Of a DNA stretch of 64,000 nt, positions 21,596 through 54,944 are shown piece after piece. Both the position numbers and the translations under genes were made by a program. The stretch is from positions 832,001 to 896,000 of the forward strand of contig OZ244650.1 of NCBI GenBank assembly GCA_965218785.1. Direction: 5' to 3'. Each line of letters begins with the position of its first letter. Position 1 is the first letter of the stretch. The DNA comes from Nitrosopumilus sp. (GTDB lineage: Archaea; Thermoproteota; Nitrososphaeria; Nitrososphaerales; Nitrosopumilaceae). Under the pieces are notes generated by a model, which had not been told where the DNA came from, did not search any database, and was given only the letters and a program-made list of their open reading frames with translations.

Positions 21596-21749
21596 CTTTT
21601 TTCCCTAATGATTTTGTTTGTTTTTTTCTTGGAAACTGTATTTTTTCCAGATGGGGTCTTCCTAATAACATCTGAATTTCTTTTTTCTTCACATATAGCT
21701 AAGACTGATTAATAAATACGGTTTATTTGATATCTGATAAATTGGATCA

Positions 21750-23006
21750 ATGATGACAAATCCGGATGAATTTGTAATTAGAACTCCGGATGATCTGTAC
21801 AATGAATTCAGATCAGCAACAGAGCAGTTGTGCAAGCAAATGGGATTAGACCTAGAGAAGATACAGTACGAACCAAGAATGGAAACTAGAGGTAAAGGAT
21901 TGGACTATGTTTCATCACAACACCCTCCTGAAGGCGACGGTTTTGAATTCCACATAAAAACATTTACTAAAAATGACAACATTATTGGAAACACAATCGA
22001 GATTAGTATAGATATTAAGAATTCCAACAGAGTAACCCTGCATTATTTAGATCGTAAAATGGAGAAGCATGAATGGCATTCGAATTTTTTACAGAGATTG
22101 GTTTCACTAGCATGGTCTGAATATAATGATGAGGTGCTTTCAGACAAACTAGAAAATCTTTTTCATGATTCTGATATCAGGGTTTACGGTATACCAGATG
22201 ATCCAATTCTTACCCTTAAAGAGTTGGGGGTATTTTTAAAAGGAATGACATCAGTGACTGAAAAATTAACAATGTGTAAATTTTATCATGTTACAGGATC
22301 AGACAATTACAGACAGGTCAGTTTTGCGTTTTTAGCATCCGAATTAGATACACCACTCTGGGTGTTTTTTTTACAAGTAGGCTCGCCTGATAGCGGAGGT
22401 GCCAAGATAGCTTTGGACAGGGCATATGAAGAGATTGAGAAAGTAAAAAAGAAGATCAAAGTGGAGCCCAAAGAAATTCACATAGATTTTGACAAACTAG
22501 AATCATTTTTGATTGAACGCAGCAATTATTTTGAAAAAGGTTCCATCTCAAAAATATGTGAAAATTCAATTTTTGATCGTCATTATTTTGATGAATCAGA
22601 TTTTGGAGAAGAGTTTATAAAAAATTATAAAACAATGAAAAAACATTATAAAAATAACGAGTGGCGTTTAGCACTCCAAGAATTTCGTCCACTAGTTCAA
22701 GAGGCATTAAAAATCACATGTGATAAGAAAGGCATAGGCATTGCAGATATTCGTAATCCCGGTATTTCAAATTTAACTATAAGGATTATTCAGGCAAAAA
22801 TCCTGAAAAAAACAATGCAGAAATGGTTGGATGCAGTTGCCAACGATCCTAATATGGCAACTCATTCAGATTTTCCCACTGAAGAGGATCTACAGGATGA
22901 AAATATAAAAAACCGTATTTTTTTATCATTTCAAGTAGGGTTGAGCGTATTATCTGAACTCAAAGAAATTATCAATCCATTCCAAGATGAGTGGGAACAA
23001 GGTTAG
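21750..23006 (+). CDS. Hypothetical 418-aa protein with C-terminal HEPN-like (DUF4145/Abi_C-like) helical domain
   Basis: YKNNEWRLALQEFRPLVQEAL...DPNMATH pattern resembles HEPN; defence-island context. Confidence 0.5.
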   Translation: MMTNPDEFVIRTPDDLYNEFRSATEQLCKQMGLDLEKIQYEPRMETRGKGLDYVSSQHPPEGDGFEFHIKTFTKNDNIIGNTIEISIDIKNSNRVTLHYLDRKMEKHEWHSNFLQRLVSLAWSEYNDEVLSDKLENLFHDSDIRVYGIPDDPILTLKELGVFLKGMTSVTEKLTMCKFYHVTGSDNYRQVSFAFLASELDTPLWVFFLQVGSPDSGGAKIALDRAYEEIEKVKKKIKVEPKEIHIDFDKLESFLIERSNYFEKGSISKICENSIFDRHYFDESDFGEEFIKNYKTMKKHYKNNEWRLALQEFRPLVQEALKITCDKKGIGIADIRNPGISNLTIRIIQAKILKKTMQKWLDAVANDPNMATHSDFPTEEDLQDENIKNRIFLSFQVGLSVLSELKEIINPFQDEWEQG

Positions 23007-23112
23007 GAACAGTGGGAGGCGCATTGTATTTGATATCAGTTTGGTCTTTTTTCATGCTTTTAGGGAGCGATTCAAAATACCCCCAACCGAAATTTTTAAT
23101 AGACACAAAAAT

Positions 23113-23140
23113 TCAATCTGGAGAAGATTCGTATTTCATG
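23113..23140 (+). repeat. 28-bp dispersed motif, copy A
   Basis: tcaatctggagaagattcgtatttcatg. Confidence 0.85.
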
Positions 23141-23182
23141 TCTACATCTCCATAATTTCAGTACCAAGCAATCAAAAACAAT

Positions 23183-23413
23183 TTAATTTTTGATCCTTTT
23201 TTTGTCCCTGCAAATCCCGCATAGGTAATTTTTTTTGAAATTTTCTAATTCTGTTTTAAATGCAATGGTTTTAGAGTGCTCTTTTCCCGTTTTTATTCCG
23301 CCTGGCACTCTTTTTCCACAGTTTGTACAGTGAATTACAATTTCTAGTCTTATCATCTTTTCATCATCTAATTTTTCCCCAATTATCATATGGTGTCTTT
23401 TATTGATTTTCAT
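23183..23413 (-). CDS. Small zinc-binding protein
   Basis: CTNC...CGIC; 76 aa. Confidence 0.65.
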   Translation of the reverse strand: MKINKRHHMIIGEKLDDEKMIRLEIVIHCTNCGKRVPGGIKTGKEHSKTIAFKTELENFKKNYLCGICRDKKRIKN

Positions 23414-23880
23414 ATAAACATGCTCAGCAGAATAAAGACTGGCAGATCAAAGCAGGATTAATCATCAAAACTAGAGAGTCTTGAGAAAAAAGAACAAGTG
23501 CGGTATATTTGAAATGCGGGTGATTCCAAACATCAAACAAAGAAATGGAGTGACAAGCCATAACTAAATCATCATCAGTTTGTATACTTTGATCATGTCT
23601 TGGGATTTGTTTGTGATCTCACTGAAAACACATCTGATTTGAACTGAACAATGCCTCAATACCCGTATGATTTCATTGCTACTTGTATGCTTGTTCTTGC
23701 GTAAGACATATCAAAAATTATACATCTGGAAAAACAAAGTGATTCAAGAACACAGAATAACAGGCTCTTGTTTCATCATTGGCTCGTTTAAGCCTCTGAT
23801 TTTATTATCTACATGCCTTTCTTGTCCTTACGTAATATCTAAAAATTTAAGGTGATTTAATGTTCTATACCTTAAGGTTT

Positions 23881-23896
23881 GAAAAAGATTTATAAT
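23881..23896 (+). promoter_or_regulatory. BRE/TATA promoter of the AbrB-Mod-Res operon
   Basis: gaaaaagatttataat with TTTATAA ~25-30 nt upstream of ATG 23919. Confidence 0.55.
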
Positions 23897-23918
23897 TCAA
23901 GTTTATTTTTAGAATTAT

Positions 23919-24098: not shown

Positions 24099-24340
<242 letters not shown>

Positions 24341-24344
<4 letters not shown>

Positions 24345-26242
24345 GAAAGTCTCTCAAAAAAACTAAACAGCGGTTAGATCGGATTTCTGAATACACCGAT
24401 AACGAAACTGTGGAAGAATTAATGGATGTTATAGAAATTCCAAAACAGCCTGAATTTTACAAAATTCCACGAAGGTTTGGTTCCATTCCTGTAGATGAGC
24501 TTCCTCTAGGTTGTGATAAAGACAAACAGTATTATAAAATTTATCCACGAGTTGCACTACCATTTCAAAAAGCCGATAGAATAACATTTGGTCATACAAA
24601 ATTAGAACCTAACAGATTATTTTGGGGAGATAATCTACATGTAATGCGAATACTTCCATCAAATTCCATAGATTTGATTTACATTGATCCTCCATTTTTT
24701 TCTGGAACGAATTATAATGTTATTTTTGGAGATCAAAATGAAATAAGATCTTTTACGGATATTTGGGACGGGGGGATGATTAGTTATTTGATATGGCTTA
24801 ATGCCCGATTGTTGGAAATTAAAAGAATTCTTAAATCTACAGGAGCTCTTTATTTACATTTAGATTTTCATGCATCTCATTATGTAAAACAAGAATTAGA
24901 TAAAATTTTTGGAATCGATAATTTTCGAAATGAAATAATATGGCATTATGGACAAAGAACAATGCATAATAAATATAAATTTAATTCCAAACATGATGTA
25001 ATTTTATTTTATTCAAAATCAAACAAACATATTATTAATCAAATAACACTACCTTGGACAAAAGACGATATATCTAAAACACGAGTAAGAAAAATTCTCA
25101 AAGATGACAATGGTAAAGAATACATTTTAGATAATCGCTCTGTATCTAAGGGGTATCCTGTAAAAAAGCAGTATATCGATGACATCATAAAAAAAGGAAA
25201 AGCAATTGATAGTGTTTGGAATATACCTATGATAGTGAGTACCAGTTCTGAAAGAATTGGTTATCCTACTCAAAAACCTGAGGTGCTTTTAGAAAGAATA
25301 ATCAAAGCTTCAACAAAAGAAGGTGATGTAGTAGCTGATTTTTTCTGTGGTGGAGGAACAACACCTACCGTAGCTCAAAAATTAAACCGTAAATGGATTG
25401 CATGTGATCAATCCAGAGTTGCAGTTGCAATAACCCAAGGCAGATTGGAAACACTGCATGAAAAATCTGAAAGCGCAGGAACTCAACAGACCCTGCTTCC
25501 AATACCTGACATATCTGTGGAATACTGGGGAACCTACGAGGTGCCAGCATTGGAGGATCTCACAGACATGGAGTTTAGAAATTTTGTCGTTTCTGCATAT
25601 GGTGGCAGAACAGCGTCAGGTGATGGAACCATTCACGGATTCAAACAACAGACACCGCTGTTTGTAGGTTCGTCAAAACAGAAAAACAGAATTACAAAAA
25701 ACAATGTCTTGGAGTTTGCAAGGGAAATATCTGAAACAAAGGGTGTGTACAAGGGAGTGATGCTTGCATGGTCTTTTGCTGATTCTGCCAGATTTGCAGC
25801 AGAAAAGCTAAAAGGAGAAAACCATGCAGAGATTGATCTGATTCAGATCTCACTTACCGAGATTGATTCTGCCACATTTAGAAATCACATAGTAAAACTC
25901 CACGATGATTACAAATCATTATTGACGTTTATCTTGCCACCGGATGTAACTTTACACCACAAAAAAATTAGTTCCATGACGTACAGGTTTGATACATCCG
26001 AATCCATCGCACTAAACACTAGTACAAAAATCGTAAATGTACAATGGGATTTTGAATACAAGGGAAGATTCACGCCAACCCAGGGGTTTGCATATGGCAG
26101 GGAAGGCTCTGGGGATAAAATCAAACCAATGTTTATTGTACAACACAAATTCAAACATCTTGGAAATACCCCAATAGCGGTTCGTGTTCAAGATGATCTG
26201 GGTGGAGAGAAAATACACACGGAGATAATTTCGGTGAGATGA
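24341..26242 (+). CDS. mod: Type III-like R-M modification methyltransferase (beta-class N6/N4 MTase) with C-terminal extension
   Basis: LFWGDNL, DLIYIDPPFF (motif IV) before YPTQKP and ADFFCGGGTT (motif I); GAGGT SD-like upstream of TTG. Confidence 0.9.
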
Positions 26243-28188
26243 TGCTAGATTCATTCATACAACACGAAGAAAAATTCAGGGATTGGAAGAATTCTGGATT
26301 TCCAAATGTAAAAGGCGAGACATATGATTTTATCGACAATATGTTGCATCATGATAAAGAAAACAAGATGTGGAAACACCAGACAGAAGGCATGCTTCGA
26401 GTCATCTACTCATTTGAGATATTGCAAAAAAGAAACAACCTTCTAAATATCGTAACAGGTGGCGGAAAGACTGCCATAATTGCAGCCATAATATTCTGGT
26501 TAAAATCTGCCCACAACATCAACAAGTTTGTCATACTGACTCCCAATACCATAGTCCGGGCAAGACTAGAATCTGATTTCAAAGATGGTACGGTGTTCCG
26601 GAAATTTGAATTTGCGACAGAACAAAACCAGATACTGCTAAATGATCTTGGATTGCATGTCATGAAGAGTGGTGAACAGCCGCAGGGAATGCTACAGTCG
26701 GGAATAATACTGGGTAATATCCAGCAGCTTTACTCATCAAAGAACACTAATAGAAATCTTGCATATCTCAAGGAATTTGTCGGAGATTTGGCAATATTTA
26801 ATGATGAGGCACACAACACTCCTGCACCCGAATACACAAACATACTAAACGAATTATCCCACAAATGCAGGATACGGTTGGACACTACTGCAACACCTGA
26901 CAGGGCAGACGGTTCAGAACCTGATTCGGAGATGATTTACTATTATGATGTGTCAAATGCGCTAGATGATGGAATAATAAAATCAGTAGTGGTATATCAG
27001 CCCGAAGTCAAACTACTTAAAATGACATATACCAATCCTGAAACCGGAGAAAAAAAAGATATTACCGAACTTGATGCAGAATTTGCAGAAGCAGAAAAGA
27101 ATCTAAAGCCGTTTCAGTGGATACTAGATCCAGAACCCATGAGAAAACAGATTGCAATCGCTCTACAACGTCACAAGGAACAGATTGCAAGGGCCAAGGG
27201 GAGATACAAGCCGATTCTGTTTGTAGTTACCATGAGCATACAGGAGGGACAAAGGGTTCAAAAAACACTTCAGGATGTCTTTAAGATAAACACGTTGCTT
27301 GTAACGGAGGAATCCGATGAGAGAGACCGAGATGAAGCACTGCACATTGGAACATTTGAGAGCAAGTATGAGGCAGTAGTTAGTGTGCTTATGCTACGGG
27401 AGGGATGGGATGTACCGGAGGTATCTACCATACTATTGCTAAGAAAGTTCTCATCGCCAGTATACGGCCAGCAGGTCATAGGTAGAGGACTACGAAAGAT
27501 AATACGAAAGCCTGAAGAAAGAGAGATACTGGCAGTGGTGGATCATCCACGTCTGGAACACGACTGGCTGTGGAGAATGGTGGCAGTAAGCAAGATAAAT
27601 CAGGAGGTGGCAGACGGACAGATATTTGATCCTAGTGAGGATCTGCCAAAACCGATAATTCAAACAATGGTCAGACCTGAAAAAATAATAAAAATTCCAC
27701 CTGCAACTTTTGATACAAATATCCCCTGGGGGAAATATGAGGAAGAAATACCTGAAGATGAATCTGAAAATGACTGGTATGCAATGCTGGATAGGGCATC
27801 ATATGACAAGGAAAGATGGACCATATCCAGAACACGGATCAGCACTGTTGAGGCAAAAGAGCTCAAAAATAGACGTCTTGAAATTCTAAACGGAGTAAGT
27901 GACTATGATTTTAACATATCCGGACAGTATCCTAGAGATATCCTGGAAGAAAAATTCAAGGAAACACTATTGGGAATATGTGCAGGTCTGCTAGATGAAT
28001 CTGGATTTGGAAATACGAATCGCGGCAAACTGTACAAGATCATGTTAAAACACATACGTGAAAAGATATTTGCAGGAAAGCCGTTGTCAGAGGCAGAACG
28101 CGATGATATTGAGTTTGCCATGTATATGATGCCTGAGATACGGGATAGTTTCTCAAAACCGATAATTGCAGGAATCGTGGAGAGTTAA
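26239..28188 (+). CDS. res: Type III restriction Res-like SF2 helicase/ATPase
   Basis: VTGGGKT, NDEAHN, TATP, MLREGWD, QVIGRGLR; ATGA overlap with mod. Confidence 0.88.
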   Translation: MMLDSFIQHEEKFRDWKNSGFPNVKGETYDFIDNMLHHDKENKMWKHQTEGMLRVIYSFEILQKRNNLLNIVTGGGKTAIIAAIIFWLKSAHNINKFVILTPNTIVRARLESDFKDGTVFRKFEFATEQNQILLNDLGLHVMKSGEQPQGMLQSGIILGNIQQLYSSKNTNRNLAYLKEFVGDLAIFNDEAHNTPAPEYTNILNELSHKCRIRLDTTATPDRADGSEPDSEMIYYYDVSNALDDGIIKSVVVYQPEVKLLKMTYTNPETGEKKDITELDAEFAEAEKNLKPFQWILDPEPMRKQIAIALQRHKEQIARAKGRYKPILFVVTMSIQEGQRVQKTLQDVFKINTLLVTEESDERDRDEALHIGTFESKYEAVVSVLMLREGWDVPEVSTILLLRKFSSPVYGQQVIGRGLRKIIRKPEEREILAVVDHPRLEHDWLWRMVAVSKINQEVADGQIFDPSEDLPKPIIQTMVRPEKIIKIPPATFDTNIPWGKYEEEIPEDESENDWYAMLDRASYDKERWTISRTRISTVEAKELKNRRLEILNGVSDYDFNISGQYPRDILEEKFKETLLGICAGLLDESGFGNTNRGKLYKIMLKHIREKIFAGKPLSEAERDDIEFAMYMMPEIRDSFSKPIIAGIVES

Positions 28189-28536: not shown

Positions 28537-28619
28537 AGGTAGTTGTATGTGTAAGATCAATATGGAATAACATGATACGGAATTGATATGGATGACTTGC
28601 TATTCAAAAGTCAAATATT

Positions 28620-28767
28620 GGAATCCGGAGAAAATTGATATTTCATGTTTATGCCCTCACAACTTGGTAGATTTCAGATTAAACACTCTCAGAAAGAGAT
28701 AGTGGATTTTGATAAATTTTAGTGATTTATAACACAAATCATGAAATACAGATCTTCTCCGAACTAC
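28620..28767. repeat. 28-bp motif copies B (+, 28620-28647) and C (-, 28740-28767), inverted pair
   Basis: ggaatccggagaaaattgatatttcatg and the reverse complement of gtagttcggagaagatctgtatttcatg. Confidence 0.85.
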
Positions 28768-28940
28768 ACTGTAATTTTACTAGATAATTTAACTGGGATC
28801 GTCTATGTTGAATTCTGCGGTTAAATTTTGGTGTTCAGATCATTATTTTACACTCGTGCGAGATAGTGATTGCACTCAAAAAGAGTACCCGAGAAGATTT
28901 GATATGAAAAAATTATAAATTAGTTATAGAATTATAAATT

Positions 28941-31900
28941 ATGAGCAGTATTTTCTCCGTTCGTGAAGACCATATCAATAATTTATCTCCAGAATATTGT
29001 GTACAATTATTCGGAGAATTACTCCATTCTGATGCTAGACGTCTCAAACTCTCTATATCTAAGGTTAATTTTACAACAAAAACTGTTCCTGATGGTGGAA
29101 TTGATGCTTCTATCGAAGATGGGATTTCTCAAGAGGGTGATCTGATAATTGATCCTGAATCTTTTTACCAAATTAAATCTGGAGAAACATTTTCTTCATG
29201 GCAAGAATCTGAAATCAAAGAAGAATTATTACATGGAAAACCTCCCATAAAACAAAATCTTGGTGATGAAGTTCAAAGATGTTTTGAACGAAACGGGACC
29301 TATATCTTAGTATGCATGAAAGTTCAATTGTCTACTCAACAAAAAAAACAATCTGAAAAAAATTTAATCAATGTTTTAACTGCATGTGGAATAGATAATC
29401 CCAAAGTCAAAGTATGGGGCCAAGACAAAATTATTGGTACAATTGCTTCATACCCTTCATTAGTTTTACGATTGACAAGAAAAGATGCTCCTGTCTTTCA
29501 ATCTCATCAGGATTGGTCAAATAATCATGACATGCAAAGAGAACTGGTACTTGGAAAAAAACAAAAGGACTTTATAAAAATAATTCAAGAAGCACTTCTT
29601 GATGATTCTGAAACTGTTCATGTACATATCTATGGTGAAACTGGAGTTGGAAAGACAAGACTTGTTTTAGAATCTACAAGAATTTCTTTCTTATGTCCTC
29701 TTGTGATCTATTGTTCATCTCCAAAAGAATTTCTTTCAAAATCACTGCTAAATGAAATTATTGCTGATAATAAGTTACATTGTATTTTGATTATTGATGA
29801 ATGTTACTATCTTGATCATTTAAACATATGGAATAAGTTGGCATCTCTTGGTTCTCGAATAAAACTTGTTACCATGTCTCACGAATATCGAAGAGTTGAT
29901 GAAACTACAAAGCAAAATGAAGCTCCAAATTTAGATGAATCACAAATTAAAGAAATTATTAAGAAATACCATGATGATGACATTTTGGCAGGTAGATTAT
30001 CAAGAATTTGTAATGGAATTCCTCGTTTGGCTCATATGATCGGATGGGATTTAAAAAATAATCCTAAAGAAATCCTTCGTGGTTCCCAAGATGTATTTGC
30101 ATTTTTTGACAGATATATTAACCAAGGAGAAGATCCTCTTTCAACACATGTGTTACAAAGAAAAAGAATTCTTTTAACAATTTCATTATTTAAAAAATTT
30201 GGAAGCATCACATATTTTCCTAATGAATTTAAGTCAGTACATGCGATTATTGAAGAGATAGATCCAAGTATTACATTACCAATATTTCTAGAACATGTAA
30301 AAGATTTACAAGATCGCAAAATTTTGCAAGGTCAGGAAACGTTGTATATTAGTCCTAAAGGATTGCATCTGTGGTTATGGATGGAGTGGTGGGAGTCTTA
30401 TCATGCATCAATTACATTTGAAAAATTAATCCAGATAATTCACCCTACTCTCAGAAAATGGTTCTTTACAATGTTTCAATATGCTGGTAATTCTGATGCG
30501 ACAAAAACTGTTGTACAAAAATTATTTAAAGACGGTGGCCCACTTTTAAATTCCGAATTCATAAAAACTAGTTTAGGTGCAGAGCTTTTTCATTCATTAT
30601 CTAATGCAGATCCTACAACTGCAACTGATTATCTTGAACGAACAATGGGAACATGGTCTAATAAAGAATTGTGTGATTTTTCAATAGGACGGAGATCCGT
30701 AATTTATGGGTTAGAAAGAATTGTTTTTGAGCCAGAACTCTTCACTCGGGGCGGTACACTTCTTAGAAGTTTGGCTGAAAATGAAAATGAAGAATGGTCA
30801 AATAATGCTACAGGGTTGTTTGCTAGCTTGTTTTCATTAGGTATCGGCTATGCTTCATTAACCAAAACCCCTCCTAAAATGAGACTTGCTTTGTTGAAAG
30901 AAACACTGTGTTCTGATAATGAAAATAGAAGAAATTTGGGGTTAAAAGCATGTGAATTTGCCTTAAAGACCGAGGATTTTTTATATCCTTCCGAACTGCC
31001 AGCAGATGAACTTAGAGTAGAACAAAAGGGTTGGGAACCAAAAATCAACCAAGACTGGGCTGATGCGTATAAATCCGTAATCGAATTAATTATTGAAAGA
31101 CTCCAAACATTTACAAATAAAGATAAGCAAAAATGTGCTTCGATGATCTCTCAAAACTCCAGATGGCTGTTTCATACATTTTCATTTATGGGAGAATACA
31201 TCGTAGAGAAATTATACCAGATTAAAAAATTTATTGACAAAGAAACCCTATTAGAAAATATTATTGATATTTTAGAATTTGAAAAAGATAGATTAACTCC
31301 AGAAACCAAATCAAAACTTGAGACACTTCAGATTGAAATTATTGGAACTGATTATTCTTCCCTTTTGAAAAGATATGTGGGGATGGATATTATGTTGGAT
31401 TTGGCAAACAAAGATCGTGAAAAAGAAAGGGTGGAACATATCCAAAAATTAGTTGAAATGTCGTTGAATACTGAAAAATTAAAACCAGAATTATCCTGGC
31501 TGACTACTGATAATGCGCGATATGGATACGTATTTGGACAAGAATTAGCAAAAAAAGATAATGATTTTTTATTACTGCCATTACTATTAGATGAACAAAG
31601 AAAAACTGATGAAAAAGGAACTGGTTTTTTCCTAAGCGGATATCTTGTAATTATTTTTGAAAAAAACCAGAAAAAATGGCTACAAATTATGAATGAAATA
31701 TCACAAGATCCTGAATTGATAAGATTTTTTACAGAAATAGCATGGAGATCTGGGATTACTGATGAAATTGGATTATTAATATTGAATCTGATAAAATCTC
31801 AAAAAATTAAAATCGATGAATTGGATAAATTTACTTTGGGTGGAGCTGTAAACAGACTCTCTGAAAAGGTGGTGTTAGAATGGATTGAATATATGATAGA

Positions 31901-32687
31901 TACTAATGAACAAAAGACAATTTTTAGCGCTATTTCATTGTATGATGCCTTCTTTGTATATAGAGCTGAAAAAACCTTGAATCCTGAAATCACCTTAAAA
32001 CTCTTAACACATGATGTTTTCATGGGGAGAACACCTGTTCGAACATATACCATGGTGGATTACCACTGGAACGAAATAGGTCTGAGATTCATTCAGCAAT
32101 ACCCTGATGAATCTCTTGAATTTGCTGATAGATTGTTGGCAAGTATGGATAGTGAATCATCTCTTATTTCTCCTCATTCACAATCTTTGGAGGTATTGGA
32201 TACTGTTGCTTCTAGATTACCAGATGAAGTATGGGATTTAATGACTAAATACATTGCATTACCTTTTGATAAACGTGGATATGCTATAATTAATTGGATG
32301 CGGGGTAATCTATTTGCACCATCGAATAACTTTCTAGATAAGGTTGATTTTCAAAAAATTTTGGATTGGATTGATAATAATCCTCATAAATTGGCACCAT
32401 ACATTATTGAACATGTACCACCAATTCTGACCTTTGATAGTTTAGCCAGAAAACTCCTAGTAAAATATGGAACTGAAAAAAGTGTAAAAATATCCCTTGT
32501 TGCAAACTTTTCTACCGAAGGATTCTCTGGATCAGCCTCAACTCATTTCCAAGAAAAGAAAGAAAAATTACTTGTTTACAAAGAACATGATGATAACGAA
32601 AATGTGAAAAACTGGATTGATTTCTATGTAAAATGTTTAGATGAGGATATTAATCGTGAAAAATTACAAGAAGAAAGGGAATTCTAA
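28941..32687 (+). CDS. Avs-like antiviral STAND protein: N-terminal PD-(D/E)xK nuclease, P-loop NTPase, long helical sensor
   Basis: PDGGIDA..YQIKSG; GETGVGKT (Walker A); ILIIDE (Walker B); CNGIP (GxP); 1248 aa, very AT-rich. Confidence 0.7.
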   Translation: MSSIFSVREDHINNLSPEYCVQLFGELLHSDARRLKLSISKVNFTTKTVPDGGIDASIEDGISQEGDLIIDPESFYQIKSGETFSSWQESEIKEELLHGKPPIKQNLGDEVQRCFERNGTYILVCMKVQLSTQQKKQSEKNLINVLTACGIDNPKVKVWGQDKIIGTIASYPSLVLRLTRKDAPVFQSHQDWSNNHDMQRELVLGKKQKDFIKIIQEALLDDSETVHVHIYGETGVGKTRLVLESTRISFLCPLVIYCSSPKEFLSKSLLNEIIADNKLHCILIIDECYYLDHLNIWNKLASLGSRIKLVTMSHEYRRVDETTKQNEAPNLDESQIKEIIKKYHDDDILAGRLSRICNGIPRLAHMIGWDLKNNPKEILRGSQDVFAFFDRYINQGEDPLSTHVLQRKRILLTISLFKKFGSITYFPNEFKSVHAIIEEIDPSITLPIFLEHVKDLQDRKILQGQETLYISPKGLHLWLWMEWWESYHASITFEKLIQIIHPTLRKWFFTMFQYAGNSDATKTVVQKLFKDGGPLLNSEFIKTSLGAELFHSLSNADPTTATDYLERTMGTWSNKELCDFSIGRRSVIYGLERIVFEPELFTRGGTLLRSLAENENEEWSNNATGLFASLFSLGIGYASLTKTPPKMRLALLKETLCSDNENRRNLGLKACEFALKTEDFLYPSELPADELRVEQKGWEPKINQDWADAYKSVIELIIERLQTFTNKDKQKCASMISQNSRWLFHTFSFMGEYIVEKLYQIKKFIDKETLLENIIDILEFEKDRLTPETKSKLETLQIEIIGTDYSSLLKRYVGMDIMLDLANKDREKERVEHIQKLVEMSLNTEKLKPELSWLTTDNARYGYVFGQELAKKDNDFLLLPLLLDEQRKTDEKGTGFFLSGYLVIIFEKNQKKWLQIMNEISQDPELIRFFTEIAWRSGITDEIGLLILNLIKSQKIKIDELDKFTLGGAVNRLSEKVVLEWIEYMIDTNEQKTIFSAISLYDAFFVYRAEKTLNPEITLKLLTHDVFMGRTPVRTYTMVDYHWNEIGLRFIQQYPDESLEFADRLLASMDSESSLISPHSQSLEVLDTVASRLPDEVWDLMTKYIALPFDKRGYAIINWMRGNLFAPSNNFLDKVDFQKILDWIDNNPHKLAPYIIEHVPPILTFDSLARKLLVKYGTEKSVKISLVANFSTEGFSGSASTHFQEKKEKLLVYKEHDDNENVKNWIDFYVKCLDEDINREKLQEEREF

Positions 32688-32894
32688 TGTAATTTATTGA
32701 ATTTGAAAAATTAATTCTCCCATATCCAATCCTTTCCGGTAATCTGGAAACCTACTAGCATTAGAATCTGTATAATTAAATTTTTAATTGTGTTTTTGAT
32801 GATTTCTCTAATGTAATGATGGTTTTTCTGTTCTCAAATAATCTTATGTGAGTAAAAAATGAAATTTAGATGGCATTGGGAACGATCTTATCGA

Positions 32895-33011
32895 TGAATC
32901 TAAAGAAGATCTATATTTCATGTTTCATTTCTGGCATTAGATAACTTTAGAGCCACGAAGTGGATGCTGTCTAATGATCGAGATCTGAAATCACGATCTT
33001 CTCCTGATTGA
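32895..33011. repeat. 28-bp motif copies D (+, 32895-32922) and E (-, 32984-33011), inverted pair
   Basis: tgaatctaaagaagatctatatttcatg and the reverse complement of tcaatcaggagaagatcgtgatttcaga. Confidence 0.85.
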
Positions 33012-33127
33012 AGCTTTGTATTTATTCTGCAATACATTTCGTTAAGATTCTCTTTATAATGAGGTAAACGATCTGGAAGAGGGTCTAAATTAAATACTGG
33101 CAAAATAAAGTCCCAATGCATGAGTAA

Positions 33128-33235: not shown

Positions 33236-36200
33236 TTGAGTGCCGTCCGAGACGGCGCATTTGAGATGGTATTAAAGAAGATAAGAACAGGATCCAAGAC
33301 TCCTGTAGATCTTGGCATTAAATTTGAAAAGATCATGTTTGATTTTTTTAAAACCGACAGCGTATACAAAAAACGATTTCAAAAGGTCTGGATGTGGAGT
33401 GACTGGGCTAGAGATAACAAGATCAAAGAAGAACTTGGAACTTCTCATGACCTAGGGGTAGATATCGTAGCTCAAGAATATGGCGGTACACTCTGCGCCA
33501 TCCAGTGCAAGTGTTATGACGATGACAATACACTTGGCAAAGAGGATATCGATAGTTTTATTGCAGCAGGAAAATCATATCATCTCTCCAACTATGTGCT
33601 GGCTTGTACAGGACCAATCAACGATAACGCAATGGCTATGCTAAGGGGTGTAAGATGCAATATAATCACAAAGCAACACCTAAAAAACAGCAGTGTAGAC
33701 TGGTCAGAGTACCCAAAGATTAAATCAAAAAAACCCAAGAAACTACGGGATTATCAACAGTTTGCAATGACTGATGTGGTACAAGGTTTTGAGAAATCAT
33801 CAAGAGGCAAGATGATAATGGCATGTGGTACGGGCAAGACGTTTGTATCATTAAAAATTGCTGAAAAACTGGCAGGCAAGGGAGGTATAGTTTTGTATCT
33901 GGTACCCTCGATCTCTTTGATTCTACAAAGTATGAGGGAATGGTCTGATAACTCTGGCATTCCACACTATTACATGGCAGTATGCTCGGACAAGAGCATC
34001 AGAAATTCAGAGAATGGAACCTTGACTGAATTGGAGACTCCGGCATCAACTGATATAACAGAACTATCAGAGAAACTGGCAAAAATATCCAACAATACCA
34101 TGAACGTGATTTTTTCCACATATCACTCAATCGAGGTAGTCATGAGCGCCATGACTGACAAAAAGTTTGATCTCATACTGTGTGATGAGGCTCACAGAAC
34201 TACGGGAATTGGAGATACAAAAAAAGAATCATTTATGACCATGGTTCATCATGAGCACAACATAAAATCCAAACGACGACTCTACATGACGGCAACCCCA
34301 AGAATATACACAGATATCATCAAAGCCAAGGCACAGCAAAAGGAAAAAGTAATCATCTCAATGGATGACGAATCTCTTTATGGTTCGGTCTTTCATAATC
34401 TGAGCTTTTATGATGCTGTCCACAAGTATCATGCCCTGTCTGATTTCAAAGTACGCGTAGCCATCATGGATGGTGATACCATGAGTAGAATGATCCAGCA
34501 TTCTACTGCCAATGATGAAAATCTGGTTCCACTAAATGAAAAAACATTGATGGCATCCGTATGGCATGCTTTGGAGTATCCTGGGAGTGGGGATGAAAAA
34601 GAGTTGCTACAGCGAGTTATAGTGTTTTGTGACATGATAAACTCATCCAAACTGTTTGCAGGAGAGGAACTGGTATACAAAAAAGACATTCGTGAAGATC
34701 CTGAAAAACTGGGTAAATCCAGAGAGATTGACAGGTATAGATCATTTGGCAAGGTAGTCGAGCATATCCAAAAGATAAAAAATGATCCTGATTCTACCAA
34801 ATCTGAAGTAAGGCACGTGGATGGGGGCGACAATGCCCAGAGACGGCGGCGGGAACTTGACTGGCTTCGAGACAGCCAGGATGATCCGAGCACATGCCGG
34901 ATTCTATCAAACGCCCGATGTTTATCTGAAGGCATAGATGTTCCCTCTCTGGACGGCGTAGTATTTATGAATCCGCGAAAATCAGTTGTGGATGTGGTGC
35001 AGGCTGTTGGTCGAGTCATGCGCCGATCGCCTGGAAAAGAATACGGATATGTTATACTTCCTGTTGCCATACCTGCCGGCATCAAAGTCGAGGAAGCCCT
35101 CAGTGACAGTAAACATTTCAAGGTGGTGTGGCAGGTACTCAACGCACTTCGATCCCATGATCCAAATCTTGCCGAAGAGATTAATCGACTGATACTGGAG
35201 AGACCCAATCCCAATGACAATGAGATAACAAACAGGATAATAATCAGACATGCAAACAGCCACAATCTCTATTCCCTTGACATGCCTGCTGATAAAATGA
35301 TAGAGGGTATTACTACCAAGCTTATTGAAAAGGTCGGTGACATTAATTATTTTGACAGGTATGGTCAAAAACTCGGGGATGCATCACATACAATCGAGGC
35401 AAGAATCAAAAATAAAATAGATTCATCTGATTCAATAAAAAACGAGATCGGACAGTTCCACGATTCCCTCAAGAATATGATAAATGACTCCATTACAATT
35501 GACTCTACAACACAGGTCATAGCACAGCATATCGTACTGTCAAGAGTTTTTGATGCGTTGTTTCAAGGCGAGTTTACATCACATAATCCAATATCCATCG
35601 AGTTTGATAAGATTGCAAAGAAACTGGGGTTAAAAGAAGAGCTTGAGGATCTAGAGGGATTCTATGATGACGTAAAAACAGAGTTAAAGGAGATAAAGAG
35701 CAGAGAGGCAAGACAGAATTTTATTAAAAAGATTTATGGAAACTTTTTTGAGAGTGCCAACAAAAAGGAAACAGAACAACACGGTGTGGTGTATACTCCT
35801 GTGGAACTGATTGATTTTATCATTAACAGTGTACAGTATCTCTTAAAGAAACACTTCAAGACGGAATTCAACCAGAGAGCGGTAAAGGTACTAGAACCGT
35901 TTGCTGGGACGGGCACATTTATCACCCGACTCTTGGAATCTGGTCTGATCACCGACAACCTGTATGAAAAATACAAAAATGATTTGTATGCAAATGAGCT
36001 TATTTTGCTGGCATATTACATTGCAACAGTAAACATAGAGACTACATATTCGAGTCTCCGAAAAGGTGGAAGATACGTTCCGTTTGATGGGATTAGTTAT
36101 ACAGATACACTACGGATAAATCCACAGTACCGGGATGATGAACGTCATAGACATGAAAAGACTACACTTGATGAGATATTCGAGATAGCTCATAAGAGGA

Positions 36201-37969
36201 TACGGCATCAGAGAGGAATCCATGTTCATGTACTTATGGGAAACCCACCGTATTCGGCAAAACAAAGCGACTATAATGATCAAAATCCGAATGTTTCATA
36301 TCCTGAATTAGATAAACGAATAGAAAATACCTATGTAAAAAAATCAAATGCAACCCACAAAGGTTCACTTTATGATTCCTATATACGCGCCATTCGTTGG
36401 GCATCTGACAGAATTGGCAAGTCGGGAATAATCGCGTTTGTCACAAACGCTAGTTTTATACGATCAGAGACAGCAGCAGGAATACGTGCCTGCCTTGCAG
36501 AGGAATTCAATGAGGTATGGTGTTTTGATTTGAGAGGAAATCAAAGAACTCAAGGTGAAGTTTCAAAGAAAGAAGGGGGCAAGATATTTGGTTCTGGTTC
36601 ACGTGCCCCCGTAGCAATAACAATCCTAATCAAAAACCCAAAAAAGAATGATTGCACCATACATTACAAGAATATTGGTAATTATCACAACAGAGAGAAA
36701 AAGTTGGAGATAATAAAAAATACAAAATCTGTACAAGGAATACGAGATTGGCAAGCAATAACCCCTGATAGACACAATGATTGGCTTGACCAGCGCGGTG
36801 ACGAGTTTTCAAAGTATATGTCTATTGGAAACAAGAATGTCAAGACAGGTAAAAGTGGAAGTGCTATATTTAGAATGTATTCACGTGGAATAGCAACAGA
36901 TCGTGATGTGTGGGCATATAATTCATCTGAAAAAGAATTATCAAATAACATGAAGTGCCATATTAATTATTGTAATAATCAAAATCCAGATAACCCCGTC
37001 ATCAATCCAAAACAAGGTAAATGGAGTAGAGGATTACGTAGTAAAATTAAAACAATTAAACCAAAATTTGAACAAAATAAAATTAGAATTGCTTTATACA
37101 GACCATTTTTCAAACAATATCTCTATTATGATTCTACAAGAATTTTTAACGAAGAAGTTTCTCAAATACCTAAATTCTTCCCAGAAAATTATTCAAAAAA
37201 CCTGATCATCATATTACCATACAAATCTACTGTATATTTTTCTACATTTGTAACTGATATTACACCTGATCTTAATATAATTACTGCCAATCAATGTTTC
37301 CCGCTATACACATACGAAAACAAAAAAGACAAGAAAATCAATATTATTGATTCCATACTACAACAATACCAGACACATTATAACGACAAAAAAATAACCA
37401 AAAAAGACATCTTCTACTATACATACGGCATCCTGCATCATCCAGCATACAAAAAGAAATTTGCAAACAATCTCATTAGAGAACTGCCGAACATACCAAT
37501 GGCTCCAGATTTTTGGAAGTTTTGCAATGCAGGAGAAAAACTAGTTGACTTGCATCTGAATTTTGATTCATGTAATAAATACAGTCTTGGTAAACCAAAA
37601 CATAAATTCAATAAATTCACAAAGATCTCATTTGGAACAAAAAAGCTCAAAAAAGATGGCAGAGACAAGACAGTATCGGATAAAACAAGACTCCGCATTG
37701 ATGGTGTCGAGATATTTGACAGTATACCGGAGATAAAATATTCAGTAAACGGAAGGACCCCTTTGGAGTGGATAATAGATAGGCACCGTATTACGACGGA
37801 CAAAGACAGTGGAATTACAAATGATTCCTGTTCTGGAGTTGACATTATATCAGTAATAAAGAGAGCCGTACATGTGGGAGTAGAATCTGATAAAATAATA
37901 TCACAACTGCCTAAAGAATTTGAACCAAAGAACTGGACTCCTGCAAAGACAGGTCTTGACAAATTCTAA
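33236..37969 (+). CDS. Type ISP restriction-modification enzyme (Mrr-like nuclease + SF2 helicase + N6-MTase + TRD; LlaBIII/LlaGI-like)
   Basis: DLGVDIVA..IQCK; MACGTGKT; DEAHR; LEPFAGTG; GNPPY; DLRGNQR; YRPF; 1577 aa. Confidence 0.92.
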   Translation: MSAVRDGAFEMVLKKIRTGSKTPVDLGIKFEKIMFDFFKTDSVYKKRFQKVWMWSDWARDNKIKEELGTSHDLGVDIVAQEYGGTLCAIQCKCYDDDNTLGKEDIDSFIAAGKSYHLSNYVLACTGPINDNAMAMLRGVRCNIITKQHLKNSSVDWSEYPKIKSKKPKKLRDYQQFAMTDVVQGFEKSSRGKMIMACGTGKTFVSLKIAEKLAGKGGIVLYLVPSISLILQSMREWSDNSGIPHYYMAVCSDKSIRNSENGTLTELETPASTDITELSEKLAKISNNTMNVIFSTYHSIEVVMSAMTDKKFDLILCDEAHRTTGIGDTKKESFMTMVHHEHNIKSKRRLYMTATPRIYTDIIKAKAQQKEKVIISMDDESLYGSVFHNLSFYDAVHKYHALSDFKVRVAIMDGDTMSRMIQHSTANDENLVPLNEKTLMASVWHALEYPGSGDEKELLQRVIVFCDMINSSKLFAGEELVYKKDIREDPEKLGKSREIDRYRSFGKVVEHIQKIKNDPDSTKSEVRHVDGGDNAQRRRRELDWLRDSQDDPSTCRILSNARCLSEGIDVPSLDGVVFMNPRKSVVDVVQAVGRVMRRSPGKEYGYVILPVAIPAGIKVEEALSDSKHFKVVWQVLNALRSHDPNLAEEINRLILERPNPNDNEITNRIIIRHANSHNLYSLDMPADKMIEGITTKLIEKVGDINYFDRYGQKLGDASHTIEARIKNKIDSSDSIKNEIGQFHDSLKNMINDSITIDSTTQVIAQHIVLSRVFDALFQGEFTSHNPISIEFDKIAKKLGLKEELEDLEGFYDDVKTELKEIKSREARQNFIKKIYGNFFESANKKETEQHGVVYTPVELIDFIINSVQYLLKKHFKTEFNQRAVKVLEPFAGTGTFITRLLESGLITDNLYEKYKNDLYANELILLAYYIATVNIETTYSSLRKGGRYVPFDGISYTDTLRINPQYRDDERHRHEKTTLDEIFEIAHKRIRHQRGIHVHVLMGNPPYSAKQSDYNDQNPNVSYPELDKRIENTYVKKSNATHKGSLYDSYIRAIRWASDRIGKSGIIAFVTNASFIRSETAAGIRACLAEEFNEVWCFDLRGNQRTQGEVSKKEGGKIFGSGSRAPVAITILIKNPKKNDCTIHYKNIGNYHNREKKLEIIKNTKSVQGIRDWQAITPDRHNDWLDQRGDEFSKYMSIGNKNVKTGKSGSAIFRMYSRGIATDRDVWAYNSSEKELSNNMKCHINYCNNQNPDNPVINPKQGKWSRGLRSKIKTIKPKFEQNKIRIALYRPFFKQYLYYDSTRIFNEEVSQIPKFFPENYSKNLIIILPYKSTVYFSTFVTDITPDLNIITANQCFPLYTYENKKDKKINIIDSILQQYQTHYNDKKITKKDIFYYTYGILHHPAYKKKFANNLIRELPNIPMAPDFWKFCNAGEKLVDLHLNFDSCNKYSLGKPKHKFNKFTKISFGTKKLKKDGRDKTVSDKTRLRIDGVEIFDSIPEIKYSVNGRTPLEWIIDRHRITTDKDSGITNDSCSGVDIISVIKRAVHVGVESDKIISQLPKEFEPKNWTPAKTGLDKF

Positions 37970-38308
37970 TGTAAAGAAATATCAATCAAAGATATGACAT
38001 ACGAATTAAACTAAATATTACAAAGAAATTTCTAAATGTTCCATGCAAAGCTCTCCAATGTTTCTGAATGAAAGACAATAGTATGTGGAATCAAAGATAT
38101 TGTAAGGAGATCCTGATTTTTCAAACATCTATCAATAGCAACGGCACTTAATTTGATATATTATTGAAAAGTCATGTTGATTTAATCATGTGAATAAAAC
38201 CTCTTGATTCATCTCTGGGTTCTGTAAGAAATATTGCTAAAAGGAAGATTGGAATATGACGGATGAGGTAAGCAGGATCCTATGACTGCGTCATAGCCCA
38301 TAGATCGT

Positions 38309-38336
38309 CCAATTTGGAGAAGATCGTTATTTGGAA
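38309..38336 (+). repeat. 28-bp motif copy F
   Basis: ccaatttggagaagatcgttatttggaa. Confidence 0.75.
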
Positions 38337-38424
38337 TAAAATTTTGCAAAACACCCTAACTTTACAGCGCAGTCAAAATATCCACAACTTACCAGAGCGA
38401 TAAAAGAGAAAGTTTAACTGTATT

Positions 38425-41505: not shown

Positions 41506-42033
41506 TCTTGTTAATCTCTGATTCATTTCAAATCCATAAAATCGATGATATTTTAGGACTTTCAGATCTGCCTATACATCATGTTCGCTAGTATTATCTC
41601 TGATCTACTGCTTTTTCTTCATTTGATCCTCAAAATATTTTAGGTCTCTACAACTTTTCAGTACCAATGCAGGGAAATATTTAAAAAGATTTTACATAGA
41701 AATAATTAAAGAAGATATGACAAACCCCCATGATGAATTCCTGCACAAATCCAAAACTGAAGATAAACGGTTGAATCAATCAATTGAGCAAAAAATAGAA
41801 TCAATCCAGTCCGGAAACTCCAAAGGCAAAAGATACACCATCCCGGAATATCTCGCACATATTGACCGGGTTCTACAAGAGAGTTAAAGCATGGTTTTGT
41901 AACTCTGTATGGGACATAACCATGACTGTATATCTTGAGATCATGGTTTTCCACTCCCGTTTTTTACGGCAAAAAGACCAACCAACAACATAAACCCCAT
42001 GAATATTATACCGAAAAATCAACAGTACTTTTG

Positions 42034-47079: not shown

Positions 47080-47346
47080 GTAAATTATTTTTCCTTAAAA
47101 ACGTTATTTAACTGCTCGCTTCATTGGTATGGCTGTTATCATTTCTCTTGGCTGGTATCTCAATGTGGGTCGTCTTTTGGCACGATATCATATGCAGATC
47201 CAAACAAATCTCAAACCAGTATCGTTTTTCGATGTTTCATCATAGGCACCATTAGTTGGGGATGAATAAAACCCCTAGCTTTTTTCATGTTTATAGAGGA
47301 TAATTCAGAATTCTACAAAGTTAGAATTTCAGACAGGCGGAATTTT

Positions 47347-47374
47347 TCAATCCGGAGAAGATCGTGATTTCATG
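47347..47374 (+). repeat. 28-bp motif copy G
   Basis: tcaatccggagaagatcgtgatttcatg (25 of the first 26 nt identical to copy E). Confidence 0.85.
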
Positions 47375-47652
47375 TCTGATTCAGGCATTAATTCCATATC
47401 ACGATGATGTTACAGAACCTGGAAGATAAACAAATATTCATTTGGTCTTGGAATATTATACAATGTTTACAATAATGAACAAGGTGATATCTGAATATTT
47501 TAGGTTAACAAAATTCAGGTGGGATACTGCCAGTTATTTTTAAAAATCCTGCAAAAATCTTCAGGAACTTGAGCACCGCCGGTGTAAATGATCACACATC
47601 AATTGCTTTCCATATCGAAAATAATTTTAAGTAGGTCTGGTTTGCCTTAATC

Positions 47653-50136: not shown

Positions 50137-50153
50137 TGAGTTTCAACTGAGCA

Positions 50154-53292: not shown

Positions 53293-53494
53293 TTTTAAAA
53301 AACAGCTTTATGCTGTAAATAATACTTGCGCAGGGATATGGGATTAATTGAGGTTCTGGGTATTTAGTGATGACATACAAATCATGAAATATGGATCTTC
53401 TCCAAATTGGATTTCATCTGACTTTTGCTTCCCGTTGAATGATTTTGAGGAAATTGTTCTTTTTAGACCTTGTTGGTGCATTTTGGTAATTCAT

Positions 53495-53536
53495 GACTCA
53501 TGAGTTTCGGGGGTTCAAATCCCTCTCTATACGCTA
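53495..53536 (+). pseudogene. 3' fragment of a long-variable-arm tRNA (Ser/Leu type)
   Basis: gactc-at-gagtt hairpin, T-arm ggggg-ttcaaat-ccctc, 7-nt acceptor strand, then gcta; no 5' half found. Confidence 0.55.
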
Positions 53537-53792
53537 GATCCCGATAACTTCAGTAACCCTCAAGATGTATTATTGGTGTCTGCCTGCATCCTATTCTCAG
53601 ATAATGGTTCGTGTTTTGTGGTACAAAACGGCAGGAAAAAATGCAGGTAAATGGAACGTGTAATCTTGCCTGTTTGAAAGATGGATTTTGACCAAAGACA
53701 TCGTGCTGGCTAACTCCAGACCATGCCATCCACAGACAATCAGAAGGCGGAATATTGACAATCTTAAAAACAAGGCAGGATACACCAGAATC

Positions 53793-54002
53793 ATGGAGAC
53801 AAGAAAATTCACCATACAGGTGATTAAATCATCAGAAGGTGGATATACCGGAAGATGCATTGAGTTGCCTGCAGCAATTAGTGAAGGGGATACAATGGAG
53901 CAATTAGAAACAAACATGAAAGAAGCTGTTCAACTAGTTCTAGAATACATTGAAGAGAAAACAAAATCAGATCAGAAGATAATCATAGAGATTCCAAATT
54001 GA
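53793..54002 (+). CDS. hicB: HicB-family antitoxin
   Basis: GGYTGRCIELPAAISEGDT.EQLE.NMKEAV. Confidence 0.88.
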   Translation: METRKFTIQVIKSSEGGYTGRCIELPAAISEGDTMEQLETNMKEAVQLVLEYIEEKTKSDQKIIIEIPN

Positions 54003-54107
54003 GTCTCAGAAACCACAATTGGCTAGATGTTGTAAAGGCATTAAGCAAGTTCAGTTATTGTGTAGACAGGCAAAGAGGTAGCACTATGAGATGTTTGCCG
54101 ACATGAT
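53999..54107 (+). pseudogene. hicA: Truncated HicA toxin
   Basis: LSLRNHNWLDVVKALSKFSYCVDRQRGS, then loses the GSH His (ggtagcact) and terminates. Confidence 0.7.
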
Positions 54108-54341
54108 ACGTGCGATATCAGTTTTTCAGGACAGGAAGATTTGATCTTGACGTGATGGATATGTTGCACGAGAATCAATTATCCCAAAAACTTTTGATCG
54201 TCACTATAAATGGATTGAATCAGTAAGACACAACTTTTAGCAGATGCATACGATACAAAAGATCCTAGTCGATTATATGAAAGTTTCAAACAATTGCGTT
54301 ATATTACAACACCATATACTGAAACGTACGGCGGATAAAAC

Positions 54342-54746
54342 ATGATAAAACCACATATAGAAAAAACTGGAATAGAACAGGATATTTCTAGATTAGACTG
54401 TATAAGAAAAGAATTTCAAAATTCCACACATATTAATTCAGATGACTTTGCGTATCTGGGACTTGAATTATGCGGTTTGGTAGAAAGATTATTGGAAAAT
54501 AATGATGAGAAAATACAACAAATGATGGAAAGTTACGGTCTAGTCCAAATACAAGAAAATACCGGTAAAGACAACTTTGATTTAGATAAAGAAAGTGTTA
54601 AAAAAATAATATTAAAAGAAATTAGTATTGGTCAAATATTTTATCCAAGTGAGATATCTGATGAATATAATTTGGATCTAAAAATGGTAATGGATGTGAT
54701 CTCTGAATTAAAAGAAAATAAGCAAATCATTGAAAATATAGATTAA
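54342..54746 (+). CDS. Hypothetical protein with C-terminal winged helix
   Basis: FYPSEISDEYNLDLKMVMDVISELKENKQI. Confidence 0.6.
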   Translation: MIKPHIEKTGIEQDISRLDCIRKEFQNSTHINSDDFAYLGLELCGLVERLLENNDEKIQQMMESYGLVQIQENTGKDNFDLDKESVKKIILKEISIGQIFYPSEISDEYNLDLKMVMDVISELKENKQIIENID

Positions 54747-54944
54747 CATGTCAACTCATTATAGTACAATGATTCCATAAAAGGTGAACGTATTGTATGT
54801 AGTTCAGAAAAATGAAACAAAAATACCCATGACCGGAAATCAGAGGTACATGATAATTTCTGGAAAGATCCATATTTCATGATTGTATGTCAGATCATTA
54901 TAACGCACCAGACTCCTAACTGGGATGGATTTACTTATGTATGA

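Follow-up and report, generated by a model that had tools for sequence, protein, structure and literature searches.

Repeats among the defence genes of a Nitrosopumilus genome as probable ends of an IS6-like insertion-sequence family

A 64,000-nt stretch of a Nitrosopumilus genome (the window; G000:C1:832001-896000, in a genome of 1.99 Mb) carries defence and toxin-antitoxin genes among copies of a short repeated site. An earlier note described the site as a 28-bp sequence bounding gene cassettes, and compared it both with recombination sites such as those of pdif modules and integrons and with the terminal inverted repeats (TIRs) of non-autonomous mobile units. What is this site, and what kind of enzyme acts on it? 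With a probability of about 0.88, the 28-bp site makes up the inner and best-conserved part of a ~55-bp TIR belonging to an IS6-like insertion-sequence (IS) family of Nitrosopumilus. The family comprises an IS6-like IS with derivatives resembling miniature inverted-repeat transposable elements (MITEs) and cassettes, and it belongs to a known kind of element and is not a new recombination site.

The conserved sequence is longer than the 28 nt originally delimited, which form only the inner part of the repeat. In an alignment of copies, conservation continues beyond ATTTCAkG, where a variable stretch of 20-45 nt leads to a conserved outer tip, (A/C)CAGAACC, at a distance of 25-45 nt from CATG. 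The consensus of the repeat is TTTCAATCTGGAGAAGATCnnnATTTCAkGTCTC...ACAGAACC, and its outer tips read GGTTCTGT.../...ACAGAACC. The second element noticed before, (T/G)CAYTA, is real; it is not separate and belongs to the outer half of the same repeat. Moreover, the reverse complement of the outer part (GGTTCTGT...) lies upstream of some copies, and for this reason the tip was compared with the ends of the IS6 family.

A TIR profile built from 18 complete repeat copies was scanned over the window and the genome, and recovers all nine strong copies listed before in the window. The matches at 23107+, 28617+, 28737-, 32895+, 32967-, 38305+, 47342+ and 53352- have E-values from 3e-12 to 0.0085, and a weak match at 54859+ has an E-value of 0.07. 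The earlier consensus, allowed up to three mismatches, gives five matches in the window (23113+, 28740-, 32895+, 47347+ and 53383-) against none in 100 shuffles. None of the five copies called degenerate is supported, as 20158+ reaches only E=14 and 21628-, 23508-, 49330- and 57213+ are unmatched at E<=50. Two of the five proposed cassettes (21628/23113 and 23508/28620), which were built on degenerate left copies, are therefore not there, and the arrangement with a minus copy on the left and a plus copy on the right holds for 28740/32895, 32984/38309 and 53383/54854. By eye, the stretch at 20159 (window 20146-20220) resembles the DNA that borders a repeat tip on its outer side at G000:C1:699.3 kb, next to a ParE toxin-antitoxin pair. 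Small minus-strand ORFs nearby (window 20431-20971) have no Pfam match, and a toxin-antitoxin label for them is putative.

Genome-wide, the profile finds 51 copies at E<0.1 (30 plus, 21 minus), nine of them in the window, which makes up 3.2% of the genome. At up to two mismatches, the pattern occurs 26 times in this genome versus zero or one time in each of 18 congeners. A scan for the exact pattern across prokaryotes, with a single genome for every species, returns 35 stretches; Nitrosopumilus or Nitrosopumilaceae records account for 28 of these, and some records contain 3-6 copies. This patchy, multi-copy spread with expansion in the present genome marks a genus-wide element and not a conserved regulatory site. 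One viral match, on an 82.9-kb contig, shows no outer tip on inspection by eye. Of the 53 genome-wide copies of the earlier, shorter profile, which was used for gene-distance counts, 50 lie between gene calls (crude and ORF-based), in agreement with the intergenic placement seen before. The related claim that the copies lie in accessory DNA holds partly; it fails for 47347+, which adjoins rpoK, and for 53383-, which lies 60 nt upstream of the deoxyhypusine synthase gene. A CRISPR-like solo repeat was considered because the reverse complement ends in ATTGAAA, and was rejected, as the genome contains no arrays and its regularly spaced repeats are perfect tandem repeats. Perfect tandem repeats occur at C1:58636-59259 (78 bp x 8) and C1:1278656-1278859 (68 bp x 3), the second directly behind a motif copy.

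The repeat is associated with a DDE transposase. A tblastn search with the 464-aa DDE protein of G000 finds homologues beside motif copies in loci of other Nitrosopumilus genomes, and five Nitrosopumilus genomes contain 14-42 transposase matches each. In ten of 20 loci fetched from other genomes, the transposase gene is followed by a TIR match no more than 100 nt past its 3' end. The transposases are 373-464 aa long, and in other genomes the repeat stands directly behind the stop codon. G000 has two matches to Pfam DDE_Tnp_IS240 (PF13610), with scores of 45-49 bits against a cut-off of 27; the enzyme family is thus encoded elsewhere in the genome, as expected from the suggestion that the enzyme acts from outside the window. 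The intact DDE transposase of G000 (464 aa, C1:1217304-1218698) has a duplicated SWIM-like zinc-finger N-terminus, and its best NCBIfam match is NF033587, 'IS6 family transposase' (E 7e-31, positions 1-201/202).

A complete element is present in genome G034 (locus L063). It spans 2,491 bp, carries the motif-bearing TIR inverted at both ends and has the duplication CACACAAG on both sides, and its transposase gene is interrupted by stop codons. Passages of PMC7986276 give 8-bp duplications, GG tips and a cTGT motif as marks of the IS6 family. Four elements of the present family have 8-bp duplications (CACACAAG, TTGATTCC, CTTGATCG and CCCGTCAT), and the tips GGTTCTGT.../...ACAGAACC show GG followed by cTGT, with the 'caaa' motif present only loosely as AAAG. 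An adjacent transposase and 8-bp duplications confirm that the site is part of the terminal inverted repeats of mobile DNA, and the proposed likeness to pdif or integron sites gives way to an IS6-type DDE transposase with 8-bp target duplications.

In G000, the cognate transposase survives only as fragments, with tblastn remnants at C1:1343298-1343441, 1303778-1304062 and 813139-813192, so that most copies in this genome are probably fossils. Solo ends are the majority, and several retain the last transposase codons upstream. In addition, four minus/plus pairs form small two-ended elements of 210-510 bp. The one at C1:812852-813351 (500 bp) has near-identical TIRs, a perfect 8/8 duplication (TTGATTCC) and an 18-aa C-terminal remnant of the transposase inside, and thus combines the two inverted ends, absence of a transposase gene, length of a few hundred base pairs and target duplication of a MITE. 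The pairs of 217 and 210 bp (C1:699901 and C1:916949) have both ends and no duplication of their own.

Units that lack a transposase and carry toxin-antitoxin genes have inserted whole, so the cargo units envisaged before do exist. The ParE unit (C1:698825-700117; 1,293 bp) has an outward-facing end on each side, two further ends inside and no transposase. It carries a small ORF followed by a gene for a ParE toxin (PF05016, E 1e-7), and CTTGATCG on both sides forms a perfect 8-bp duplication. The left duplication abuts the tip of an older partial end, in the order ACAGAACC-CTTGATCG-GGTTCTGT (junction C1:698817-698825), which means that the ParE unit inserted on the 8 bp beside an existing tip.

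The second such unit, recognised by its empty site, lies in the window. The hicBA unit (53352..54916, 1.57 kb) is transposase-less and bounded by two TIRs of the same subtype. Its left end (53352..53415, minus strand, E 1.3e-9) has the tip GGTTCTGG at 53352, close to the deoxyhypusine synthase start, and its right end (54855..54916, plus strand, E 0.07) is a degenerate TIR whose tip, read by eye against the subtype elsewhere, is ...CACCAGACTCC. The cargo consists of a HicB-like gene at 53793-54002 (HicB_lk_antitox E 3e-4, under the Pfam cut-off), a truncated HicA-like ORF of 35 aa at 53999-54106 (HicA_toxin E 0.013, first 21 of 58 positions only) and a 134-aa ORF at 54342-54746 without a family match. 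The deoxyhypusine synthase gene and the divergent homologue of ORF 54945-55301 (p118) are separated by 107-114 nt in G007, G010 and G006, by 1,264 nt in G009 and by 1,652 nt in the window. The joined flanks of the unit are colinear with the spacer of the relatives, which makes this a clean insertion, absent from three of four relatives.

A related transposon with an intact transposase carries restriction-modification genes. This 6,050-bp element (C1:1212865-1218914; L058 1865-7914) has the 464-aa transposase at its right end, a related TIR (GGTTCTGTGTAGTT...), inverted 28-bp GGTTCTGTGTAGTTGTGGGGATAT repeats and the 8-bp duplication CCCGTCAT. It encodes an N6/N4 DNA methylase, a 369-aa protein and a bPH/SHOCT protein, and a motif-type end is nested 47 nt inside its left repeat. 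Furthermore, a Type I restriction-modification locus (C1:69383-80319; L001 3383-14319) lies between a minus and a plus motif copy. Its 276-bp inverted repeats are 96% identical and end exactly at the motif, and it contains one full and two partial hsdS genes in inverted arrangement, a Phage_integrase-family tyrosine recombinase and a PIN-domain gene. The TBP gene beside this unit is not syntenic in the relatives.

The orientation of neighbouring copies is also patterned across the genome. Among copies less than 20 kb apart, ten pairs are minus-plus, nine plus-minus, nine plus-plus and one minus-minus. In 10 of 11 cases, a minus copy with a neighbour less than 20 kb further on is followed by a plus copy (p ~0.03 by our own binomial arithmetic, with 59% plus copies overall), and four of the ten minus-plus pairs are the small two-ended elements.

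The window has a defence island between the DUF2203 gene (20784-21185) and the UbiA gene (from 41935). The two genes are 20.7 kb apart in the window, 0.28-1.9 kb apart in G010, G006, G009 and G007, and 18 kb apart in G012. A segment conserved in G006 and G009 matches window 23196-23420, which divides the island into two insertions, A and B. Insertion A (~21.2-23.2 kb) contains a 418-aa gene, for which no family match was found in place of its former label 'HEPN-like'. Downstream of this gene lies a right-facing TIR copy (23107..23165, plus, E 1.4e-7) with the tip ...TTTCAGTACC ending at 23165; the right edge of the insertion is within ~30 nt of this tip, as conserved DNA resumes at 23196. On the left edge of this 2-kb insertion, a 55-aa minus-strand ORF (window 21428-21595) aligns with positions 1-38 of the IS110-family transposase profile DEDD_Tnp_IS110 (E 8.7e-6, slightly short of the Pfam cut-off) and is a fragment of an unrelated second IS.

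Insertion B (~23.4-41.7 kb, a strain-specific block of ~18.5 kb) contains Type III restriction-modification genes, a 1248-aa gene, a Type ISP gene and three ORFs. Every gene block in it finishes with a right-facing tip (28675, 32954, 38371 and 41665), and two blocks begin with a left-facing tip (28704 and 32962). The Type III genes encode a methylase (24341-26242), a ResIII helicase (26239-28188) and a small nuclease (28189-28536), and are followed by a right-facing copy (28617..28675, plus, E 0.0029; tip by eye against copy 80267). The next block lies between a left-facing copy of the 'ATTTGTG...CACTA' subtype (28704..28767, minus, E 0.0085; tip by eye against this subtype in other genomes) and a right-facing copy (32895..32954, plus, E 1.3e-4) whose tip ...TTTAGAGCC ends at 32954. 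Its cargo is the 1248-aa gene (28941..32687, plus), labelled 'Avs-like' before. The product is indeed a defence ATPase, and its specific match is PADLOC PD-Lambda-4_A (E 4.3e-28, profile 2-1276/1283), with only a weak ATPase_2 match in Pfam. The third block, between a left-facing copy (32962..33017, minus, E 3e-12) and a right-facing copy of the 'TTTGG...TAACTTTACAG' subtype (38305..38371, plus, E 4.9e-5, as at G000:C1:491566), carries a Type ISP restriction-modification enzyme (33236..37969, plus; Type_ISP_C E 3.6e-77, Mrr_cat_2, ResIII, ISP_coupler). The right edge of insertion B carries a weak partial TIR of the outer half only (41635..41665, plus), 269 nt upstream of the UbiA gene; its E-value of 6.2 is not significant alone, and the edge position comes from the relatives.

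Two tip-to-tip junctions, of 28 nt (28675/28704) and 7-8 nt (32954/32962), separate these blocks. A single decayed IS leaves outward tips close together, so the junctions indicate long elements side by side, as the earlier note read them. The tips of the PD-Lambda-4-like (28704-32954) and Type ISP (32962-38371) units face outward as claimed; a target duplication and an empty site that would show movement as units were looked for at both, and none was found.

About 25 tandem ACAG units (window 24126-24225) lie in a short ORF (24099-24344) just upstream of the Type III methylase gene, in what looks like the layout of a slipped-strand phase-variation switch, and contigs from public runs seem to be cut at this tract. 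Four tandem copies of ATCATTCCTT (window 33127-33166) stand ~70 nt upstream of the Type ISP gene start. Three sequencing runs from two studies cover the region as assembled contigs, many of which break at repeat copies. A joint of 32991 to 38456 is present in three runs and is given no weight, as its shorter side has only 29 letters, all within the repeat. Contigs of run X3, from another study, are identical to the window over 34988-38344 and 38862-41989 and differ at 108 of 4,381 positions (~2.5%) over 27724-32105, the part with the Type III end and the PD-Lambda-4-like gene. At the level of contigs, this pattern may reflect mosaic exchange between strains.

The copy next to rpoK has a different setting. 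In nine of 11 relatives' loci, rpoK is directly followed by a cyclophilin-like gene, and in the window a 4.1-kb insert separates the two, with a Pro_CA_2 gene, a 424-aa gene, an HTH gene and a nucleotidyltransferase gene. At the left of the insert lies a right-facing TIR copy of a long subtype (47342..47419, plus, E 4.7e-12) with the tip ACAGAACC. This tip points into the adjacent strain-specific DNA and does not enclose it, and the copy marks the edge of a rearrangement and not the end of a cassette. The stretch beyond the tip (window 47404-47570) is repeated at G000:C1:1371133-1371301 (81% identity) and at three places in G009. Further along, the window has a 52-nt inverted repeat (55888-55939/56610-56661, 88% complementary) with 670 nt between its arms. 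It bears no relation to the motif and possibly represents a further small mobile element.

Several findings weigh against the assignment of the repeat to an IS6-like family and against its role in moving the island genes. The NF033587 score of the intact transposase is 107.5, below the curated cut-off of 125, and the runner-up is IS1 (E 2e-16). In passages of PMC7986276, IS6 elements usually have repeats of 15-20 bp (range 14-20), lengths of ~0.7-0.9 kb and transposases of 213-254 aa, and the present family departs from these sizes with a TIR of ~55 nt, elements of 2.49 and 6.05 kb and transposases of 373-464 aa. For these two reasons, the family is named 'IS6-like' and is not presented as a proven IS6 member. 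The left end of a transposase subgroup with 64-69% identity in other genomes was looked for and not found. In four loci of G032 and G033 (L061, L064, L065 and L069), a tRNA gene precedes the transposase gene; its 3' end is ~60 nt from the transposase start, with a shared TTCTATATTAATTTTCGAGG stretch in between. This reflects either a preference for tRNA-proximal targets or a left end that escaped delimitation. The TIR of the sole intact transposase of G000 is without the GGAGAAGATC block in its inner part, which makes the action of this enzyme on motif-type ends conjectural. When minus/plus pairs were scored one by one, none of the three in the window had a target duplication, with a best agreement at the tips of 4/8 (pairwise and by eye). 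By eye, the PD-Lambda-4-like unit has ends of two different TIR subtypes, and so has the Type ISP unit. Moreover, defence cargo is not found in every minus/plus pair, since at least one pair elsewhere (C1:1294157-1304321) encloses housekeeping-type genes, namely superoxide dismutase, an Na/H exchanger and an SNF2 helicase. Its two copies were probably paired by chance, or else form a composite of great age.

Should the family work as its ends suggest, the transposase would bind the inner block through its N-terminal zinc-finger/HTH part, cut at the GG tip and join the tips to target DNA whose strands are cut 8 bp apart. DNA between any two outward-facing ends could then be moved in trans by a transposase from another copy, and such movement may have placed the ParE unit, the hicBA unit and perhaps larger defence units. 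New insertions would sometimes land on the 8 bp beside an existing tip and build tandem blocks. A more far-reaching version holds that an IS6-like transposase of marine ammonia-oxidising archaea mobilises transposase-less toxin-antitoxin and anti-virus cassettes in trans and, through a preference for the 8 bp beside an existing end, lines them up head-to-tail as a defence island, with the PD-Lambda-4-like and Type ISP units as two such cassettes. We regard this extension as doubtful.

For the island, a nearly even chance attaches to a simpler history, in which its copies are debris of independent IS insertions in permissive hotspot DNA and the PD-Lambda-4-like and Type ISP genes arrived otherwise. 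The missing duplications around 28704-32954 and 32962-38371, the unlike subtypes at the ends of each unit, the pair around superoxide dismutase and its neighbours and the tip at 47347+ directed into inserted DNA all speak for such debris. Homologues of the 1248-aa gene, found in five of 150 other genomes of the genus, also have no TIR in the available flanks. The DUF2203-UbiA interval itself varies without the motif, as the 18-kb block of G012 has no motif matches, and the interval is accordingly a general variable hotspot. This block (L093, G012:C1:661801-681400), from another species, has non-defence content, with type IV pilus-like genes (T2SSE, T2SSF), a TackOD1 protein and transporters. 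On the other hand, the two tip-to-tip junctions would need two separate long elements, all four gene blocks of the island finish with a right-facing tip, and the same tip-8 bp-tip junction at C1:698817-698825 demonstrably arose when a TIR-bounded cargo unit inserted beside an older tip.

A small RNA gene, an operator or a promoter/terminator module common to defence genes would be a very improbable identity for the repeat itself. Such a role would agree with the 35 of 53 copies that are directed at the beginning of the following gene, in several cases 59-93 nt away, with the T-runs after some copies and the TTTATA box before some (by eye), and with the promoter parts that IS6-family ends supply in bacteria according to passages of PMC7986276. 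However, the window contains no Rfam family at gathering thresholds, RNAalifold gives no consensus structure for 36 copies on either strand, gene distances range from 59 to ~770 nt, and the repeat is nearly absent from 18 congeners with the same core genes. An RNA gene was also set aside as the window has no tRNA and single-sequence folds are inconsistent, and the widely varying gene distances rule out a promoter at a fixed distance.

Least probable of all is a target of a tyrosine or serine site-specific recombinase, with cassettes exchanged as in pdif modules or integrons: the Phage_integrase-family gene inside the motif-flanked Type I locus (C1:69.4-80.3 kb) and the 276-bp inverted repeat ending exactly at the motif would fit it, but that gene sits among inverted hsdS genes in the usual specificity-shuffling layout and is read as the probable hsdS shuffler and not the motif's enzyme, no such gene was seen beside the other copies examined, two inverted arms around a spacer are not visible by eye in the 28-bp site, and the 8-bp duplications with an adjacent DDE transposase indicate transposition.

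The identification replaces an apparent new recombination site with a concrete and testable identity. As the true ends are known, elements of this family can be annotated in Nitrosopumilus genomes, in an archaeal group whose mobile elements have received little description. Transposons of this IS6-like family carry along at least small toxin-antitoxin units and one restriction-modification system. If larger units move likewise, this would explain how defence islands are assembled in abundant marine archaea, and strings of cassettes mobilised in trans would parallel, in archaea and by transposition, the resistance arrays of IS26. A literature search found no paper pairing Nitrosopumilus with miniature inverted-repeat elements. 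A survey of Thaumarchaeota reports 244 IS of 13 families (PMC6563490); the main text of that paper contains neither 'MITE' nor 'non-autonomous', and its supplementary tables may list the family.

Compared with known systems, pdif modules and integron cassettes share the arrangement of modular accessory genes bounded by short repeated sites. They are moved by tyrosine recombinases on dif-like or attC sites without target duplication, whereas the Nitrosopumilus repeats are transposon ends with a DDE transposase and 8-bp duplications; the inverted arms with spacer, the tyrosine recombinase and the absence of duplication that define the former are not features of the 28-bp site. The IS6/IS26 family (IS26, IS257 and archaeal ISH-type elements) is closer. 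Its members have a DDE transposase of the IS240/IS6 profiles whose N-terminal part is of the zinc-binding and HTH kind, GG tips followed by cTGT and target duplications of 8 bp, and derived MITEs and rare passenger-carrying members are known (passages of PMC7986276). In contrast to their 14-20-bp repeats, those of Nitrosopumilus are ~55 bp long with a conserved inner block, and the elements (~2.5-6 kb) and transposases (373-464 aa) exceed the ~0.8 kb and 213-254 aa of that family. IS26 pseudo-compound transposons are bounded by directly repeated whole IS copies, while the Nitrosopumilus cargo lies between inverted ends. As in IS26 arrays and translocatable units, accessory blocks at one hotspot are split by IS ends and new units come to lie beside an existing end. 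IS26 targeted insertion proceeds without duplication and joins whole IS copies in direct orientation, whereas the unit at C1:698825-700117 made a normal 8-bp duplication beside the older tip, and only ends remain. MITEs consist of IS-type inverted repeats around nothing, and mobile insertion cassettes (MICs) of such repeats around non-transposase passenger genes, as in the IS231-derived MIC231 of Bacillus cereus. The Nitrosopumilus units resemble both in their IS-type ends, their target duplications and their probable mobilisation by a transposase in trans, and differ in their archaeal host, their IS6-like parent and their toxin-antitoxin and possibly defence passengers.

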